This document shows positions 49,457 to 60,698 of a stretch of 64,000 nt of DNA, piece after piece. Source of the DNA: a virus (lineage: Duplodnaviria; Caudoviricetes); the IMG/VR virus record IMGVR_UViG_3300033069_001378, positions 128,001 through 192,000 of that record; one strand, written 5' to 3'. The translations under genes and the position numbers were made by a program. Within the stretch, counting starts at the first letter, position 1; each line of letters begins with the position of its first letter. The notes below the pieces were generated by a model. It was given only the letters and a program-made list of their open reading frames with translations, searched no databases and was not told where the DNA came from.

Positions 49457-50428
49457 CTATTTGACTATGTTTTCTATCTCGTGATCATACATGAGCTTAA
49501 CAAGGTCTAAGAATTTCGTTCTTGGAGTCCAACCAAGCTTTTGCTTTGCTTTTGCATAATCACCTAGCAAATAAGGTACTTCCTCGGGTCTGCAAAGACG
49601 TTCATCAAAATGAACGTGCTCCTCAACCGAAAGACCTGCTAGCTTAAACGTTTCATAAAGAAATTCGGTGACTTTGTGAGTCTGACCTGTTGCCAGAACG
49701 TAGTCATCTGGCTTGTCTTGTTGAAGCATTAGCCACATTCCTTCAACGTAGTCAGGTGCGTAGCCCCAATCTCTGTAGGCTTCAAGATTTCCAAGATATA
49801 GCTTATCTTGTACGCCTGTTTTTATTCTGGCTGCTGCCATGGAAATCTTTCTTGTAACAAACGTCTCACCGCGACGTTCTGACTCATGGTTGAACAAGAT
49901 TCCACAGCTTGCATGAAGACCATAGGACTCTCTATAGTTTCTGGTAATGTTATGAGCGTAGAGTTTGGCACAAGCATATGGCGATGCTGGAAGCATCTTT
50001 GATTCTTCTGTATATCCTGTTAATGGGCAAGGAGATACACCATACATTTCCGAGGAGCTTGCCTGATAGAACCTTGCGTTTGGAACAAGCTCCTTCATTG
50101 CGTTCAAGAGCTTAAGTGTACCCATGCTCACGGCTTCCAAAGTCTCTTCGGGCACATCGAACGACACCCTTACATGAGATTGAGCAGCGAGGTTATAGAT
50201 TTCATCTGGCTTGTACCTATTCAGAATCTTGTATAGCGAATGAGAGTCTGTTATGTTTCCCCACTCCATAACAAAATTTGGATGCTTGTAGATATTCTCA
50301 AGCCGTTCTGTGTTGAACGTACTTGTTCTTCTTCTCAAACCAACGACCTTGTAACCCTTTGACAAAAGAAGTTCGGCAAGATGGCTTCCATCCATGCCGG
50401 TGATTCCTGTAATAAACGCTGTCTTCAT
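49457..50428 (-). CDS. gmd: GDP-mannose 4,6-dehydratase
   Basis: [59 protein letters not shown]; start at MKTAF. Confidence 0.95.
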
Positions 50429-51420
50429 ATTCCTCTTACCTTTGGATACTGTGATGCGAACCATTCACATGTTTCTTTTAATGCCGTATCAAAGTCAGTA
50501 TAGAATTGAGACTCATCTTGCACAGACGAATCCACAAAAAGATTCATGAAGTTTCCGTTATCGCTTGGCTTTCTAAAGATTCCATTTGGCTTATCATCAT
50601 CCCACTTTACTTGCCACTTGTCATAACCAAATATGTCGCAAACCTTGTTTACAGCGGCACTTATGGCATATTCTTGATTCGTTCCGATATTAACCAAGGT
50701 ATAGTTCTTGTAGAGTCTCTTGCCATTTAGCTTGTTTGCCTTGCATACATGGTCCACTCTATCAATCACAGTCATTATTGCTTTAGCCACATCTTTTGAA
50801 TATGTGAACTGACGTAGAGAACGACCGTTGCCCCAAAAGACAGGACGTTCGTTGGTTAGCTTGGCTTCATAGATTCTTCTAATGATTGCAGGGAGTACAT
50901 GACCATTTTCTAGATCAAAGTTATCGTGCGGACCAAAGATGTTATTTGGAATGACGCAAATATACTTTCTGCCATGCTGTTCTCTATAGATTCTTGATTG
51001 AACGTCTAGCATTCTCTTTGCGTATGCATATCCAAAGTTTGAATCGTGAGGTTCTCCGTCATGGAGATCTCTCTCGTCGTAAGGCATACCTTTTCTTGGC
51101 TTCTCTGGAAAGATGCAAGTGCTCAGCATCGAAACAACCATATCGACGTTGCATGTATGTGCTGCGCGAAGAACGTTTGTGTTGATTGCAAGATTCTCAT
51201 GAAAGAAACCGTCTTGGTCTTTCATGTTGCCTTGAACACCACCAACCTTTGCAGCTAGATGAATGATTACGTCAGGCTGATGCCTACAGAGAAGTCTTAC
51301 AGTGTCTTCATAGCTCTTGAGATCGCAATCTCCAGAACCAACAAGGATACAATTTGGATAAGCCTCGAAAGCTTTTCCAACCATTCCCGTTCCACCTGTT
51401 ACAAGTATTTTCTTTGTCAT
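50425..51420 (-). CDS. fcl: GDP-L-fucose synthase-like epimerase/reductase
   Basis: [42 protein letters not shown]. Confidence 0.9.
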
Positions 51421-55197: not shown

Positions 55198-55878
55198 TCA
55201 TGCCTTCTTCTTTTTGATTAGGACCAAGAAATAGTGCGCCATTGTTCTAACAACATGTGAGAACGGATATGCTTGTACGTTATAGGAAGAAAGAATATGC
55301 TCTTTCCAAAACTGCTCTGGAAAGACAGACTGATGCAAATGAATGATTCCGCCATCTGGAAGCTCTCTGTAGTCTGGTCCTGTGTTGATACTTCCGATGA
55401 AGACTCCATCCTCTGCAAGATTATCGAATACGTACGAGAAGAATGTGTGAATCTCTGTTGGATGAATGTGCTCGATGACTTCCCAGGCACTAATCACATC
55501 GAACAAAACCTTTTCTCCATTCTTTTCAACGTGATATGGCTTTGTCAAATCTGCTGTATGAAGAACTGTCTTGTGATATTCTGGCCAGTTATGAAGTCCT
55601 CTCTTGATTGAGTGATCCGAGCCTTCAAGACCAATTGAGAAATGACCTCTCTTGGCAAAGTCAACGGCAAGCTGTCCACCAGCACAACCAATGTCCATAT
55701 AGTTGAACTTTTCCTTGCCCATGTTGTCAAGAACGTACTTCTCAACTTCGGCAAGATAGCCATCAGATGAATGGTTGTCGTTAATTGTACCAACAGGACA
55801 AATGTGATCGGGAGATTGTTCAGCTACAGTAGCTTGTGCTACGATTTCTACGTTTTCGTATTTCTCTTTGTCAAACAT
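55198..55878 (-). CDS. class I SAM-dependent methyltransferase
   Basis: MDIGCAGG, FDVISAWEVIEHI. Confidence 0.85.
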   Translation of the reverse strand: MFDKEKYENVEIVAQATVAEQSPDHICPVGTINDNHSSDGYLAEVEKYVLDNMGKEKFNYMDIGCAGGQLAVDFAKRGHFSIGLEGSDHSIKRGLHNWPEYHKTVLHTADLTKPYHVEKNGEKVLFDVISAWEVIEHIHPTEIHTFFSYVFDNLAEDGVFIGSINTGPDYRELPDGGIIHLHQSVFPEQFWKEHILSSYNVQAYPFSHVVRTMAHYFLVLIKKKKA

Positions 55879-56785
55879 GATTCTTAATCCATTCCTTGAG
55901 GCTTACTTGTGGCTCAAATCCCAATTCTTTTCTCGCTAGCTTGATATTTGCCATTGTCAATTTTGGTTCGATGCGCTCTGGCAAGAACTTGACGTTTTTT
56001 ACACCAAACATATCGCTTATTATTTGGTTTAGGCTGTATTGTGTTCCTGAGCCTACGTTGTAGATAGCAAACTTCTCTTTGCAGTCGAATGCTGCTTTTA
56101 CATTTGCCTGAACAACATCGTCTACGCATACGAAGTCTCTAACTTGGTTTCCGTCGCCTGTGACAGTCAAAGGCTTTCCTTGTTTTAGCTGCTCCATCCA
56201 GATTCCGATTACTGGAACATAGGAGCCGATTGTTGGCTGTCTGTTTCCGTAGACGTTGAAGTATCTTAGGCAGATTGCTTCAAGACCATAGAGGTCCGAG
56301 AACAGCTTCAAATACTGTTCTCCAATTTGCTTATGAAGAGCATAGGGAGACATTGGATTGCATGGTTCGTCTTCCGAGGTAGGGACATTTTGAGGTTGTC
56401 CATAAACAGACGAAGAGGAACTAAACACAATTCTCTTGACTTGCGTTCCACAAAGCTTCATTGCTTCAAGAAGATTGACGGTACCGTCGATGTTAATCTT
56501 ATGGCTTGTAAATGGATCTATGATTGAAGGCTCAACTCTTGGAAGAGCAGCTACGTGAAACACAAGCTCTATATTGTTTGTCTTGATGTATGATTCTATG
56601 TTGCAGACGTTATTCGCTTGCGACAGATCCAGCATGAGAAAGTCTGCGTTTGGATTTACGTACTCAATGAATCCTGTTGACAGATCATCAATAACAAAAA
56701 CATTGTGTCCAAGCTCAACAAGCCTGTCTACAAGATTGCTTCCAATAAAGCCTGCTCCACCTGTTACCAATATGTTCTTTGTCAT
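55871..56785 (-). CDS. NDP-sugar 4-epimerase (GalE/WbpP-like SDR)
   Basis: GGAGFIGS, DDLSTG, SSSSVYG, SPYALHK, RYFNVYG, RDFVCVDD. Confidence 0.9.
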   Translation of the reverse strand: MTKNILVTGGAGFIGSNLVDRLVELGHNVFVIDDLSTGFIEYVNPNADFLMLDLSQANNVCNIESYIKTNNIELVFHVAALPRVEPSIIDPFTSHKINIDGTVNLLEAMKLCGTQVKRIVFSSSSSVYGQPQNVPTSEDEPCNPMSPYALHKQIGEQYLKLFSDLYGLEAICLRYFNVYGNRQPTIGSYVPVIGIWMEQLKQGKPLTVTGDGNQVRDFVCVDDVVQANVKAAFDCKEKFAIYNVGSGTQYSLNQIISDMFGVKNVKFLPERIEPKLTMANIKLARKELGFEPQVSLKEWIKNHV

Positions 56786-57513
56786 TTTCTATTCTTCTTA
56801 TCTTCTTCGGCTTGCCAGATTCTTTCTCTGAGTCCTGTTGTTGACCAACCGTGACTCCTATCAATGTAGTGAATAGGGATGCCTAAATCTTGTCCAGTAT
56901 ACGATTTTCCATCGTAGTCTGTACCCAAAAACCGTATTTGCGGCTTCTTATCTTTCATCAGTTGAACAAGGCTCTCTTCTGTATCATAAGCAATAACCTC
57001 ATCAACGTATTTGATGGAGGAAAGAACAATCATTCTTTCTTCCAATGACTGAACTGGTCTATTCTTTGATTTTCTTTCAACAGAAGGGTCTGTATGAATT
57101 CCACAAATGAGATAGTCACAGTTCTCCTTTGCTTCTTTCAACATTTTGATATATCCAGGATGCATCAAGTCAAACGAGCTTGCAACAAACCCAATCTTTT
57201 CATGTAGGTTGTTTTCCTTACGCCAGTCTTTGATGTTCATAACCTTGTCGTCAATCAGAAGGTCAAAGTGAGGCTTTGAGTTCATGATTAGTTCACTGAA
57301 ATACACTCCCCACCGATTGAGTTGATTTAGAGTGAAGTCCGACCAATCTTTTCCTGATACGCATCCTCTTGCGGTGAAAATCTTTATTGTGTTGCCTTGT
57401 CTATAAAGTTCGTTCACATGGTCAATAACGTCTTGGTATGGCAATGCCATTTCATATTGACCGTTTTGAGTCAACGTACACAAGGTTCCATCGAGGTCAA
57501 AGCAATAGATCAT
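56782..57513 (-). CDS. HAD phosphatase - cytidylyltransferase-family nucleotidyltransferase fusion
   Basis: N-terminal FDLDGT, TARG, KP, IDDK; C-terminal SSFDLMHPGY (HIGH variant), RPVQSLEER, GTDY, WSTT. Confidence 0.88.
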   Translation of the reverse strand: MIYCFDLDGTLCTLTQNGQYEMALPYQDVIDHVNELYRQGNTIKIFTARGCVSGKDWSDFTLNQLNRWGVYFSELIMNSKPHFDLLIDDKVMNIKDWRKENNLHEKIGFVASSFDLMHPGYIKMLKEAKENCDYLICGIHTDPSVERKSKNRPVQSLEERMIVLSSIKYVDEVIAYDTEESLVQLMKDKKPQIRFLGTDYDGKSYTGQDLGIPIHYIDRSHGWSTTGLRERIWQAEEDKKNRK

Positions 57514-57516
57514 TTT

Positions 57517-58029
57517 TCAGTTGCCCAAGATTGAATGGAGGAATATCTGGTGTACGCACTCTACAACTCCGTAGTCTTTGGATGGTACCCAAAAGTTTAG
57601 AAGCCTATATTCAGACTGCATTTTACACAAAGGATTCGATGACGAAAAACCAGACAAGGATATCCATCTTATTCCATTGCTCTCACAATAGTCGGCTGTG
57701 TTCAAGATGTTCATGGAATTTCCAGATGACGAAATGAGAATGACAAGAGTGTCATCCTTGTCTGCAAACTCTTTTACAAACTGCCTATACGCTTCATCTC
57801 TACCGTAGTCGTTGATGTAACAAGTAAGTCTTGATGGATCGGAAAACGAAAAAGCTCTCTTTCCCAGTTGCTTCGTATAGTCTTGAGAAATATGAGAAGC
57901 AATAGAGTTTGAACCACCGTTTCCAATGATTATGATCTGCTTGTATTTTGGTGAAGTAATGATATCCTTAAGACTGCTCGCGCATTCGTAAGCAATATCG
58001 ATTCCTTCTTGAAGTTCTTGTTTGTTCAT
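57517..58029 (-). CDS. SIS-domain phosphoheptose isomerase-like protein (GmhA-like)
   Basis: GNGGSNSIASH, NDYG, ISSSGNSMNI, YGVVECVHQIFLH. Confidence 0.85.
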   Translation of the reverse strand: MNKQELQEGIDIAYECASSLKDIITSPKYKQIIIIGNGGSNSIASHISQDYTKQLGKRAFSFSDPSRLTCYINDYGRDEAYRQFVKEFADKDDTLVILISSSGNSMNILNTADYCESNGIRWISLSGFSSSNPLCKMQSEYRLLNFWVPSKDYGVVECVHQIFLHSILGN

Positions 58030-59006
58030 ATGATGTGTCCCTTTACTCCACTGTCAGATACGAAAATAGAAATAGGCTCATGTTCCATTCCATCTTTTTT
58101 CATTCGTTCTTTCAGTTTAGTCACACAATTTGGCTTTAGCAAAAGAAAAAAGTAGCCTCCTGCTCCTGCGCCAAGCAATTTGTATCCAAGCACATATGGT
58201 TCGTTTAACAAATCTTCGAACTTATGGAAATCATCAATCTCATCAAAGATCTTTGGAGAGCTTTGTCTCTTGGCTATCCAAGCCTGGTTAAACGTTTTTA
58301 GAAACCCTTCGGTGTCTCCAAGGTCCAAGGACTCATCCACCCTGTCTACAAGGGCAAGGAGCGAATATGATTTTGATACGTCGATAGATTTGAGAACCTC
58401 TGTCGAGCTTCTCTTGATTCCGGTATAGACAAGGCACATATCGAAATTGTCTTGAAGGAACTTAGTCTCGAAGTATCGGAACTTTGGCTTCTTTCCTTTT
58501 TCAAAAACAATACGCTTGAATCCAGAAATGCCACAACCATATGAGTCTTGGTATCCTGTAAGTGGATTGAACTCTCTTTCAAGCTCAATTGACAGTTTGC
58601 ATATTTCGAAATCGCTAATGTCAAGACCAAGATAGAGAGATACAGCCTTGATTGTAGCAATCATGTAGGCAGAAGAAGTAGCAAGTCCAGAGCCATGACT
58701 GATAATGTCACTGTTGAACGTGATCGTAATGTTCTTCTTGTCGTTTGTTACTTCAAGTTCTTTTCTAAAGTGTCTCATTACCACTCTAACCACGTCATTT
58801 TTGATTTGGTCAATCGAATCAACCTCTTCCTTATGAGAGTAGTTGACGATGATCTTGTTTCTGTGGTTCGTATGAAGAGTCACATACACGTAAAGATTTG
58901 AAGGAAAGCTTATTACCGAACCTGTTCCATAGGTATCAATAAACTCCTCCAAATCAGTTGAACCTCCAACAAGGGAGATTCTAAGTGGACACTTGGTAAC
59001 GATCAT
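58026..59006 (-). CDS. GHMP sugar kinase, HddA-like (heptose-7-phosphate 1-kinase)
   Basis: PLRISLVGGSTD, GSGLATSSA, GYQD, YTGIKR, KLLGAGAGG; start at MIVTK. Confidence 0.88.
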   Translation of the reverse strand: MIVTKCPLRISLVGGSTDLEEFIDTYGTGSVISFPSNLYVYVTLHTNHRNKIIVNYSHKEEVDSIDQIKNDVVRVVMRHFRKELEVTNDKKNITITFNSDIISHGSGLATSSAYMIATIKAVSLYLGLDISDFEICKLSIELEREFNPLTGYQDSYGCGISGFKRIVFEKGKKPKFRYFETKFLQDNFDMCLVYTGIKRSSTEVLKSIDVSKSYSLLALVDRVDESLDLGDTEGFLKTFNQAWIAKRQSSPKIFDEIDDFHKFEDLLNEPYVLGYKLLGAGAGGYFFLLLKPNCVTKLKERMKKDGMEHEPISIFVSDSGVKGHII

Positions 59007-59890
59007 ACTCTTGGTTCTCTGCCTGTACGAGAAACAAACTCTCTTTTCAAGAAGTCCATGTGCCAAATCTGGAGAGGCTCAAAGAACTCGATTCCGTGCT
59101 CATCAAAGTAGGCTAAAATAGCACCTTTTCTCCAAGAGTTTAGCTCGTTTGTCATGTTTGGCATCGGATCAATATACCAGTCTGGTTCTATTGCTTTGAC
59201 CCTGGTATTTGGATCGTCAAGAGTGATTGCATATTTTTGATTTATGGATTGAGCATGTTCTCTTCCAAGTCTTATTAGCTCGGCAGCTCTTAGAAAGCAT
59301 TGCTTCATCTGGAAGTTATCAAATTCCGAGAACTGGAAGTGCATGATAGCACCAAACTTTGGTTGAAGTTGGAGATTCGTTTGTTCGTTTGTTGGTCCCG
59401 GAGTTCTTGGAGTATGCATCCATACGTTTGGATACGTTACCTTTCCATCGTCACAGAATACAAAGTCTTTGTAGTTGTTGGACCATACAGAATGATCATG
59501 TTTATAGTGGTCAACACTCTTCCACATTGCCAACCATTGCATTAGCAGCTTGTTTCCTGGCTGCATCTTGCTCATAATCTGTCTTCCACGAGAAACGAAT
59601 GGCATGGTGAATGCTTCGTCTGCGTCTAAGCATACGAAGTGTGTTCCACCAGCTTCTCTTCCTAGTTCAAGAAGCTTTTCTCTTATTCCAAGCTCTGCCC
59701 AACCAGACTTTTCTTTGAACGAGTTGTTCAAAATAACTGTGGCACCTGCATCTAACAAAATCTGTGCTCCGTTATCCGATGAGTTGTCGTCGATTGCAAT
59801 AATCTGATCAACTACAGGCTTTACGGACGCTACGTATGACTTTAGGAACTTTTCTTCATTCTTGAACGGGAGTAGAGCTATGACTTTCAT
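59003..59890 (-). CDS. GT-A glycosyltransferase (GT2-like)
   Basis: FKNEE, DDNSSD, LDADE; start at MKVIA. Confidence 0.85.
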   Translation of the reverse strand: MKVIALLPFKNEEKFLKSYVASVKPVVDQIIAIDDNSSDNGAQILLDAGATVILNNSFKEKSGWAELGIREKLLELGREAGGTHFVCLDADEAFTMPFVSRGRQIMSKMQPGNKLLMQWLAMWKSVDHYKHDHSVWSNNYKDFVFCDDGKVTYPNVWMHTPRTPGPTNEQTNLQLQPKFGAIMHFQFSEFDNFQMKQCFLRAAELIRLGREHAQSINQKYAITLDDPNTRVKAIEPDWYIDPMPNMTNELNSWRKGAILAYFDEHGIEFFEPLQIWHMDFLKREFVSRTGREPRV

Positions 59891-60698
59891 GTTTGTTTGA
59901 AAACCTTTCAATTGGAATCTTCTGACCAAAGTTTACGATAATCTGTGGGTCATAGTCTTTGAACAAAGGATGCAAAGTCCATTGTTTCTCTATCTTGTCA
60001 AGAATGGCATAGCGAGTTTCTATTACAGTTCTCTCGACTGGCTGTTTTGCACTTCCATTCGTAGAAGCTCCTCTGCCTTCGTCAAGATAGTATCCCAAAA
60101 CTCCATGAATCATTCCAACCTTTGAATGCATAGCCAATCTGATTGCTAGATCAAAGTCTGCTCCAGTCTTGAGTTGTTCATCGAAGTAACCAGCCTTATC
60201 ACAAAGGCTCTTTCTCCACATGAAGAAAGGACCAAGCATCATTCCTCTGATGAGTTCTTCTGGTCTGTCTAAAGTCCATGTGTGGTCAATGTATTGCCCA
60301 TGTGTTGAACCAAATTGGTTAACGATTACGAAGTTGCCATGAACAACATCATGATTATGATGGCTGTCAAGAAAATCTATTTGCTTTTGTATGCTGTCTG
60401 GTGTTCTTAGGTCGTCAATATTCCAAATTGTTACGTACTCGCCAGATGCTTCTTTGATACACCTGTTCATCGAAATACCAATTGGATCAACAGGATTGAC
60501 AACAATATGCTTTAAGCGACCTGGGTACTTGGCATTGAAATTTGAAACAAGAGCAAGTTCTGCTTCGGTTGGTTCATTATGATCAAGCACAATCTCAAGC
60601 TTGTCAAAACAAGTTTGCTTTGGAAGCTCATTTAGAAACTTCTCAAGATAGCGTTCTCCCTTGAAACAAGGGGTTATTGTACTGACTTTGTTGTTCAT
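59856..60698 (-). CDS. GT-A glycosyltransferase (GT2)
   Basis: VSTITP, ASGEYVTIWNIDD, GYFDE, ADFDLAIR. Confidence 0.88.
   Translation of the reverse strand: MNNKVSTITPCFKGERYLEKFLNELPKQTCFDKLEIVLDHNEPTEAELALVSNFNAKYPGRLKHIVVNPVDPIGISMNRCIKEASGEYVTIWNIDDLRTPDSIQKQIDFLDSHHNHDVVHGNFVIVNQFGSTHGQYIDHTWTLDRPEELIRGMMLGPFFMWRKSLCDKAGYFDEQLKTGADFDLAIRLAMHSKVGMIHGVLGYYLDEGRGASTNGSAKQPVERTVIETRYAILDKIEKQWTLHPLFKDYDPQIIVNFGQKIPIERFSNKHESHSSTPVQE

Follow-up and report, generated by a model that had tools for sequence, protein, structure and literature searches.

The window analysed here is a stretch of 64,000 nucleotides, bases 128001-192000 of the 252,526-base IMG/VR virus record IMGVR_UViG_3300033069_001378, for which CheckV gives a completeness of 66%. 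The record belongs to a large marine T4-like phage with T4-type baseplate and tail genes in the neighbourhood, and in protein comparisons the annotated phages nearest to it are cyanomyoviruses of the Kyanoviridae. The minus strand carries a long series of co-oriented genes for glycosyltransferases, short-chain dehydrogenase/reductase (SDR) enzymes and methyltransferases, and within this series lies a cassette with the predicted parts of a heptose-activation pathway. A first-pass annotation of the sequence had described an HddA-like kinase, a GmhA-like protein and a HAD–cytidylyltransferase fusion as three genes covering the four steps of a hybrid route to a nucleoside diphosphate (NDP) heptose. 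Domain matches bear out these three minus-strand open reading frames (ORFs), and the hybrid gene set is confirmed. All cassette genes are genuine ORFs on the minus strand, and the glycosyltransferase/methyltransferase island around them spans 17 kb. In window coordinates, the features are as follows.

59003..59929, minus strand: family 2 glycosyltransferase (GT2; PF00535 and PF13704), translationally coupled to the kinase; context only
58026..59006, minus strand: HddA-like GHMP sugar kinase, 326 aa from the ATG; proposed heptose-7-phosphate 1-kinase
57517..58029, minus strand: GmhA-like SIS isomerase, 170 aa; proposed to convert sedoheptulose-7-phosphate to heptose-7-phosphate
56782..57513, minus strand: HAD–transferase fusion protein, 243 aa
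57214..57513, minus strand: capless HAD phosphatase domain, fusion residues 1-100; proposed heptose-1,7-bisphosphate 7-phosphatase
56782..57198, minus strand: cytidylyltransferase-fold nucleotidyltransferase domain, fusion residues ~106-243, with H-P-G-Y and R-x-H-x-W-S-T-T motifs
55871..56785, minus strand: GalE-like SDR, 304 aa; proposed NDP-heptose epimerase
55198..55878, minus strand: S-adenosylmethionine-dependent methyltransferase, 226 aa; possible heptose O-methyltransferase

The end of the kinase gene overlaps the start of the SIS gene by 4 nt, 3 nt separate the SIS gene from the fusion, and the fusion/SDR and SDR/methyltransferase pairs overlap by 4 and 8 nt. The kinase ORF (58026-59066) opens at a TTG; its ATG lies further in, at 59006, where it overlaps the stop codon of the GT2 gene upstream. 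At the superfamily level the predicted domains are unambiguous: GHMP_kinases_N, SIS, and CTP_transf_like following a weak HAD/PNKP-type match.

The kinase matches PF00288 at 4.6e-11. Its best PDB matches are the HddA-type chains 4n3o (9e-22) and 3k85 (6e-21), together with WcbL (4usk, 5e-15), and its best NCBIfam match is HddA (NF049969) at 102 bits against a cut-off of 600, a score that does not establish HddA orthology. When the kinase is aligned to 4usk, WcbL residues R13, D22, S118-S120, Q162 and D163 fall on R9, D18, T110-S111-S112, Q153 and D154, so that all five mutationally validated positions are retained, with Thr as the first residue of the Ser triplet. Mutation of those residues abolished WcbL activity, and the alpha anomer is the form that WcbL binds (PMC4691232). 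In its active-site residues the protein is thus an HddA/WcbL-type GHMP kinase.

The SIS protein matches PF13580 and PF01380 and scores 58.6 bits with the gmhA model TIGR00441 (cut-off 209), and all 13 of its 13 best PDB matches are phosphoheptose isomerases (GmhA). Seven Escherichia coli GmhA residues (N52, S55, H61, D94, S119, S124 and H180) are identical in all nine phage SIS copies, while three positions are substituted in all nine: E65 by Asp, a conservative change, T120 by Ser and Q172 by His. E65 and H180 are the proposed acid/base pair of GmhA. In its catalytic Glu/His pair and its sugar-phosphate-binding Ser/Thr residues, the phage protein has the features of a GmhA-type SIS isomerase.

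The first ~100 residues of the fusion carry HAD motifs I-IV, comprising F-D-x-D-G-T, T-A-R-G, K80 and D88-D89. D6, D8, K80, D88 and D89 show no variation across 18 homologues, and T10 and T47 almost none. Family matches are weak (HAD-IIIA TIGR01662, the capsule phosphatase model TIGR01689 and PNKP-type), and the best structural anchor is a 134-aa ‘capsule biosynthesis protein’ (PDB 9iqw, 3.6e-8). We rejected GmhB orthology, since no GmhB model matched and the domain falls instead in a family of small capless HAD proteins. PfkB-type phage heptose modules have a stand-alone small HAD protein with 41-48% identity to this domain, an example being the 114-aa PSSM2_311 of Prochlorococcus phage P-SSM2 (L002:7086-7430; 43% identity). 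PSSM2_311 is annotated ‘phosphoheptose isomerase’ yet has no SIS domain, and no SIS gene was seen within 6 kb of it; the label is probably wrong. A bacterial homologue (48% identity) lies in an Azonexaceae metagenome-assembled genome (MAG; L207:5340-11460), in a cluster with NeuB and a CMP-sugar synthetase that also holds a class IV aminotransferase, SDRs, a methyltransferase, a SIS protein and a GT9 heptosyltransferase. Given the P-SSM2 module and the NeuB cluster, the small HAD family looks like a terminal-phosphate phosphatase of higher sugars. Fusions of this general kind occur elsewhere: locus L112 (6998-7792) encodes an independent HAD–transferase fusion whose transferase half falls in the HldC/HldE clade, with a PfkB kinase close by, and the ESM Atlas holds further HAD–cytidylyltransferase fusions that are archaeal, bacterial (GmhB–HldC) and giant-virus, so the architecture seems to have arisen several times.

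The second half of the fusion (residues ~106-235) matches PF01467 at 3.1e-15, with 57 bits against a cut-off of 21. Among NCBIfam models it scores best with rfaE_dom_II (TIGR02199, 90.5 bits, cut-off 181.5), followed by TagD (TIGR01518, 66 bits, cut-off 165). In an AlphaFold2 model built from an 18-sequence alignment (predicted local distance difference test score, pLDDT, 85), the best Foldseek matches are TagD (1coz), HldC (5xf2) and CCT, with a template-modelling (TM) score of 0.87 to 1coz over the TagD chain. Foldseek with the whole fusion confirmed the cytidylyltransferase fold without separating TagD from HldC, and its top list held no HAD match. By score, by fold and by its HxGH-type and xSTT-type motifs the domain belongs to the PF01467 superfamily.

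Within that superfamily its motifs are distinctive. H-P-G-Y stands in place of HxGH, the second His being Tyr, and the C-terminal motif reads R-S-H-G-W-S-T-T. The first-pass annotation had singled out this H-P-G-Y as atypical; it is present in the sequence and proves to be no one-off: 108 of 120 fused homologues share it, as do 14 of 134 stand-alone ones, and the remainder mostly have H-A-G-H. This distribution argues that the Tyr is a selected lineage trait rather than decay.

The same annotation had called for a phylogeny of the domain against TagD and HldC/HldE. We built a maximum-likelihood tree of 88 domains covering fused forms, stand-alone forms from phages and Bacteroidota, P-SSM2-type phage HldC and bacterial HldE/RfaE2, with three TagD sequences as outgroup; because it has few columns and TagD as sole outgroup, the deep placement is to be treated with care. 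A clade with 99% support in the Shimodaira–Hasegawa-like approximate likelihood ratio test (SH-aLRT) excludes TagD and splits into HldC/HldE (87%) and a 98% clade that holds all GHMP-associated fusions together with the stand-alone forms. The cassette domain therefore sits beside, not inside, HldC/HldE and away from TagD. The 98% clade shares D-P-S..K..[KR]-P with HldE, has Y-x-T-E at the position of HldE F-[DE]-E-D-T-P and R-x-H-x-[WFY]-S-[TS]-[TS] at the position of the HENase motif (F/L)xxGxSTT, and lacks the K-x-K of TagD. The Arg of STTR5, a marker of nucleoside triphosphate (NTP) promiscuity, is absent: position 5 holds Trp in the cassette protein and one of Trp, Tyr and Phe in the clade. 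We rejected a TagD identity on its placement outside the 99% clade, the missing K-x-K and the TIGR01518 score. Nor is the domain an HldC/HldE domain II, given its score below the TIGR02199 cut-off, its position in a sister clade and its diverged motifs.

Stand-alone members of the clade are common in phages. Those of IMG/VR loci L005-L147 are 45-57% identical to window positions 56782-57198, and they lie mostly among DNA-replication genes (for an SF2 helicase, a family-B polymerase, a gp32-like protein and an Asn-synthase/radical-SAM fusion), a setting that points tentatively to DNA modification, and not surface glycans, as their role. Two members lie beside a 4,6-dehydratase-type SDR, one in Chryseobacterium luteum (L157:4278-7444), where a DegT aminotransferase also adjoins, and one in Synechococcus phage S-B43 (L148:4998-7743); at both, the transferase occupies a position at which a GT-A RmlA-like enzyme would be expected. 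Assigning a substrate by clade membership was dropped, since stand-alone members occur in unrelated contexts and one, in locus L102, adjoins a PfkB kinase, so that the clade is not strictly tied to GHMP kinases.

The SDR matches PF01370 at 4e-59. It scores higher with GalE (TIGR01179, 184 bits) than with HldD (TIGR02197, 133 bits), both under cut-off, and its best PDB matches are GalE, WbgU and WbpP, with HldD absent among the 60 matches listed. We rejected an HldD identity on these two grounds. A GalE-like SDR fits the tailoring of a D,D-heptose donor rather than of an L,D-heptose of lipopolysaccharide (LPS) type. The methyltransferase matches PF13489 at 2.6e-9 and has homologues of 42-45% identity inside or beside the cassette in loci L073 and L074.

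Activated heptoses are known in ADP-beta and GDP-alpha forms, to which CDP- and UDP-beta forms were added recently, and each comes from one set pairing of a kinase fold with a transferase fold. Neither pairing is complete in this record. The first-pass annotation had found no HddC in the window; extending the search, we found no PF00483 match (the HddC-type GT-A fold) in the whole 252,526-base record, which is 66% complete, with a control that matched in 14 of 14 genomes. PF00294, the PfkB kinase family, likewise had no match anywhere in the record under a control that matched in 14 of 14 genomes, and PF00483 is also absent from four other viral fragments that carry the cassette. Outside the window, the same phage record has one CTP_transf_like match (104397-104495) of 19 bits, below cut-off, within an 864-aa open frame.

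A blastn search of the region against a phage collection gave no match, and protein-level searches alone were informative. By tblastn against cultured phages, the fusion is intact in Synechococcus phage SynMITS9220M01 at 45% identity; the announcement of that genome lists host-like heptose genes and leaves the fusion unmentioned (PMC7378029). Scans of IMG/VR and of GTDB species genomes added eight further loci with the fused form, making nine other loci in total, one of them truncated. The non-truncated loci keep the order kinase–SIS–fusion–SDR, with identities of 39-42% for the kinase, 50-57% for the SIS protein and 36-42% for the SDR, and none of the other cassette loci was found to have a homologue of the GT2 gene, which is not conserved with the cassette. 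By source, the order is seen in SynMITS9220M01, in seven IMG/VR contigs of which one is truncated, and in two contigs from single-cell or MAG assemblies, and the SDR directly follows the fusion in all nine loci. The two GTDB matches come from a Prochlorococcus single cell and from a 13-kb contig of an Acidimicrobiaceae MAG; since each has the cassette in its phage form, neither was counted as a bacterial source of the fused form. In a collection of 5.8 billion proteins the fusion family has 505 matches at E <= 1e-5. The 120 best of these cover the full length with 48-62% identity, and those that carry a name are called ‘glycerol-3-phosphate cytidylyltransferase’; the nearest ESM Atlas clusters are 98-100% viral. 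Conservation in nine other loci and 505 fusion-family matches argue that the gene set is not a chance arrangement. At genes 196-198 (L001:1-1944), SynMITS9220M01 also has a second GHMP kinase (27% identical to the cassette kinase), followed by a small ‘nucleotidyltransferase’ and a GT-A transferase of PF00483; this set resembles a separate pair for sugar-1-phosphate activation in the same glycan island.

The synteny, the catalytic residues, the placement of the transferase and the lack of HddC in this record and in four other cassette-bearing fragments support the idea of three genes for four steps. We propose that the cassette by itself takes sedoheptulose-7-phosphate all the way to a nucleotide-activated heptose, which would feed the 17-kb island. 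The GmhA-like SIS protein would form D-glycero-D-manno-heptose-7-phosphate, the HddA-like GHMP kinase would, by analogy, phosphorylate O1 to give the alpha-1,7-bisphosphate, the small HAD domain would take off the 7-phosphate, and the fused cytidylyltransferase-fold domain would join heptose-1-phosphate to an NTP. The GalE-like SDR, and perhaps the methyltransferase, would then tailor the NDP-heptose.

Judged from sequence, it is likely that the cassette makes an NDP-heptose of some kind. On balance we also favour, a little less firmly, the full statement that it encodes a hybrid phage route to activated heptose differing from the textbook routes. Whether the product is alpha-linked and different from both textbook donors, which we argue by analogy with the characterized kinases, is an evenly poised question. 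We infer the heptose substrate and the alpha anomer, and we do not expect the product to be the GDP-alpha- or ADP-beta-heptose of known enzymes; it is probably a sugar donor that nobody has characterised. More tentative still, and somewhat short of an even chance, is the broadest version: a third, phage-borne NDP-heptose route in which an alpha-specific GHMP heptokinase feeds a cytidylyltransferase-fold enzyme to yield a non-GDP alpha-NDP-heptose, with the transferase clade constituting an unrecognised family of sugar-1-phosphate nucleotidyltransferases. In our literature search, no paper turned up that describes the pairing of a GHMP kinase with a heptose transferase of the cytidylyltransferase fold.

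The alternative that survives best, itself unlikely, is an ordinary beta route to ADP-beta-heptose, in which the GHMP kinase has taken over from PfkB by non-orthologous displacement and either makes or accepts the beta anomer, with the transferase working as a normal HldC. It draws on rfaE_dom_II as the best NCBIfam match of the transferase domain, on the sister relationship to HldC/HldE, on the service of the same small HAD family in PfkB-type phage modules, and on the clade member that adjoins a PfkB kinase in L102. Opposed to this are the WcbL/HddA catalytic geometry retained in a kinase whose characterized relative binds the alpha anomer (PMC4691232), the replacement of (F/L)xxGxSTT by R-x-H-x-W-S-T-T and an SDR that is not HldD-like.

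The genomes themselves also bear on the beta route. Cyanophages carry two types of module, one with a PfkB kinase, an HldC-clade transferase and the small HAD protein, often with a cupin (P-SSM2, S-CAM1 and P-TIM68), and the other being the GHMP, SIS, HAD–transferase and SDR cassette. Both types occur in one run in L073:4036-8615, part of a 90-kb viral record, and in L151:3764-8652, in the order PfkB kinase, HldC-type transferase, cupin and then the cassette. In each of these two loci a single SIS and a single HAD were found, and the 90-kb L073 record has no second copy of either. If the cassette made the same ADP-beta-heptose, the two kinase/transferase pairs lying side by side would be redundant; one SIS and one HAD beside two pairs instead suggest that the pairs are not redundant and serve two different NDP-heptoses. 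The simplest reading of this gene content is that a shared isomerase and phosphatase feed both pairs.

Also unlikely, and a touch less probable than the beta route, is a substrate other than heptose, whether another higher-carbon or hexose sugar (for example an octose, as in the making of lincosamide GDP-octose) or a polyol or non-anomeric phosphate such as glycerol-3-phosphate, ribitol-5-phosphate or a sugar-6-phosphate. Every match lies under its equivalog cut-off, phmmer places ECT and TagD above HldC in the PDB, the JGI name for the family is glycerol-3-phosphate cytidylyltransferase, HAD relatives sit in NeuB-type clusters, and stand-alone clade members occur without any heptose genes around them. 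Against these stand the GmhA matches and retained catalytic residues of the SIS protein, the heptokinases that are the best matches of the kinase, and a TagD that lies outside the clade with a K-x-K the clade lacks. A kinase and a phosphatase, moreover, make sense together only with a bisphosphate intermediate, and the cassette has neither a polyol-phosphate dehydrogenase nor a CDP-glycerol transferase.

The standard GDP-alpha-heptose route, with HddC supplied by the unsequenced third of the genome or by the host and the fused transferase serving otherwise, is improbable: the 66% completeness of the record, the PF00483 gene elsewhere in the SynMITS9220M01 glycan island and six PF00483 matches in a Prochlorococcus single-cell assembly, which imply that hosts carry such enzymes, leave room for it, but the transferase is fused to the phosphatase and co-inherited with the kinase and isomerase in 10 of 10 cassette copies, the SynMITS9220M01 gene is paired with a different GHMP kinase 6 kb away, and four further cassette-bearing fragments are without PF00483.

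Several points nevertheless weigh against the hybrid route. An HddC gene could sit in the missing part of the record, and SynMITS9220M01 does have a PF00483 gene, though beside its second, different GHMP kinase. The kinase, the SIS protein and the fusion all score far under the NCBIfam equivalog cut-offs, and the functions of all cassette members are predicted. The HAD domain is not a GmhB orthologue, and its relatives occur in other higher-sugar clusters. The transferase clade is functionally mixed, with the PfkB-adjoining member in L102, stand-alone members beside DNA-replication genes in many phages, and the Chryseobacterium luteum gene in its dehydratase and aminotransferase context. Finally, activity might be reduced or altered by the Tyr that replaces the second His of HxGH.

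Compared with the GDP-alpha-heptose pathway, the hybrid cassette has the same SIS isomerase and GHMP anomeric kinase with the same catalytic residues, and the same logic of isomerase, kinase, phosphatase and transferase. It differs in having a cytidylyltransferase-fold domain instead of a GT-A (PF00483) guanylyltransferase, and in a phosphatase that is a ~100-aa capless HAD of another subfamily than GmhB, fused to the transferase. With the ADP-L-glycero-beta-D-manno-heptose pathway (GmhA, HldE or HldA plus HldC, GmhB and HldD) it shares the transferase fold, in a sister clade, and a small HAD family found also in PfkB-type phage modules such as that of P-SSM2, whereas it has no PfkB kinase, carries R-x-H-x-W-S-T-T and H-P-G-Y, and has a GalE-like rather than an HldD-like SDR. 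TagD/TarD, the glycerol-3-phosphate cytidylyltransferase, has the same fold and shares the Arg that opens its R-T-E-G-I-S-T-T-type motif, but it lies outside the 99% clade, its K-x-K is missing in the cassette domain and no CDP-glycerol-using genes are nearby. The lincosamide GDP-octose relay LmbN/LmbP/LmbK/LmbO follows the same logic of isomerase, GHMP kinase, HAD phosphatase and transferase on a higher-carbon sugar; it differs in its GT-A guanylyltransferase and in needing a dedicated transaldolase for the octulose phosphate.

Two recent studies are relevant to phage heptose activation. Tang et al. (Science 2024) extended beta-NDP-heptose enzymes across kingdoms to viruses, defined the STTR5 motif and, as summarised in PMC11573728 and PMC11461863, reported no phosphatase in viruses. 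The small fused HAD may explain this gap. With the phage DNA-hypermodification cluster ‘contig 53’, formation of heptosyl-5-hydroxymethylcytosine (5hmC) DNA in E. coli depended on each of three proteins, namely a HAD–APH-like bifunctional enzyme, a cytidylyltransferase and a GT-B (bioRxiv 10.1101/2023.12.21.572611), which by analogy is an experimental precedent for non-canonical heptose activation by a phage. That cluster, like the present cassette in its proposed role, obtains a heptose donor by combining a kinase outside the PfkB family with a HAD phosphatase and a transferase of the cytidylyltransferase fold. Compared by description, ‘contig 53’ differs in that its kinase is APH-like rather than GHMP, its fusion joins HAD to kinase rather than to transferase, its acceptor is 5hmC DNA and its isomerase is supplied by the host.

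If correct, the hybrid route would break the rule that the cytidylyltransferase fold takes only beta-heptose-1-phosphate while alpha sugar-1-phosphates need GT-A transferases, and would widen the substrate range of that fold. It would also place another donor molecule in the ocean's most abundant viruses, and the clade, in phages and Bacteroidota and in fused and stand-alone form, would be a source of private sugar donors with which phages glycosylate virions, host surfaces or DNA. With a private donor, a phage could attach sugars to targets of its own and would not have to compete with LPS synthesis in the host. Existing annotations are unreliable for such genes, which appear as ‘glycerol-3-phosphate cytidylyltransferase’, ‘hypothetical protein’, ‘ADP-heptose 6-epimerase’ or, for the small HAD of P-SSM2, ‘phosphoheptose isomerase’.

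At the edge of the island, window positions 49457-51420 encode a true Gmd, the GDP-mannose 4,6-dehydratase (427 bits with TIGR01472, cut-off 415), together with an Fcl-like reductase. With these two enzymes the phage is probably also able to convert host GDP-mannose into GDP-fucose or a related 6-deoxy sugar.

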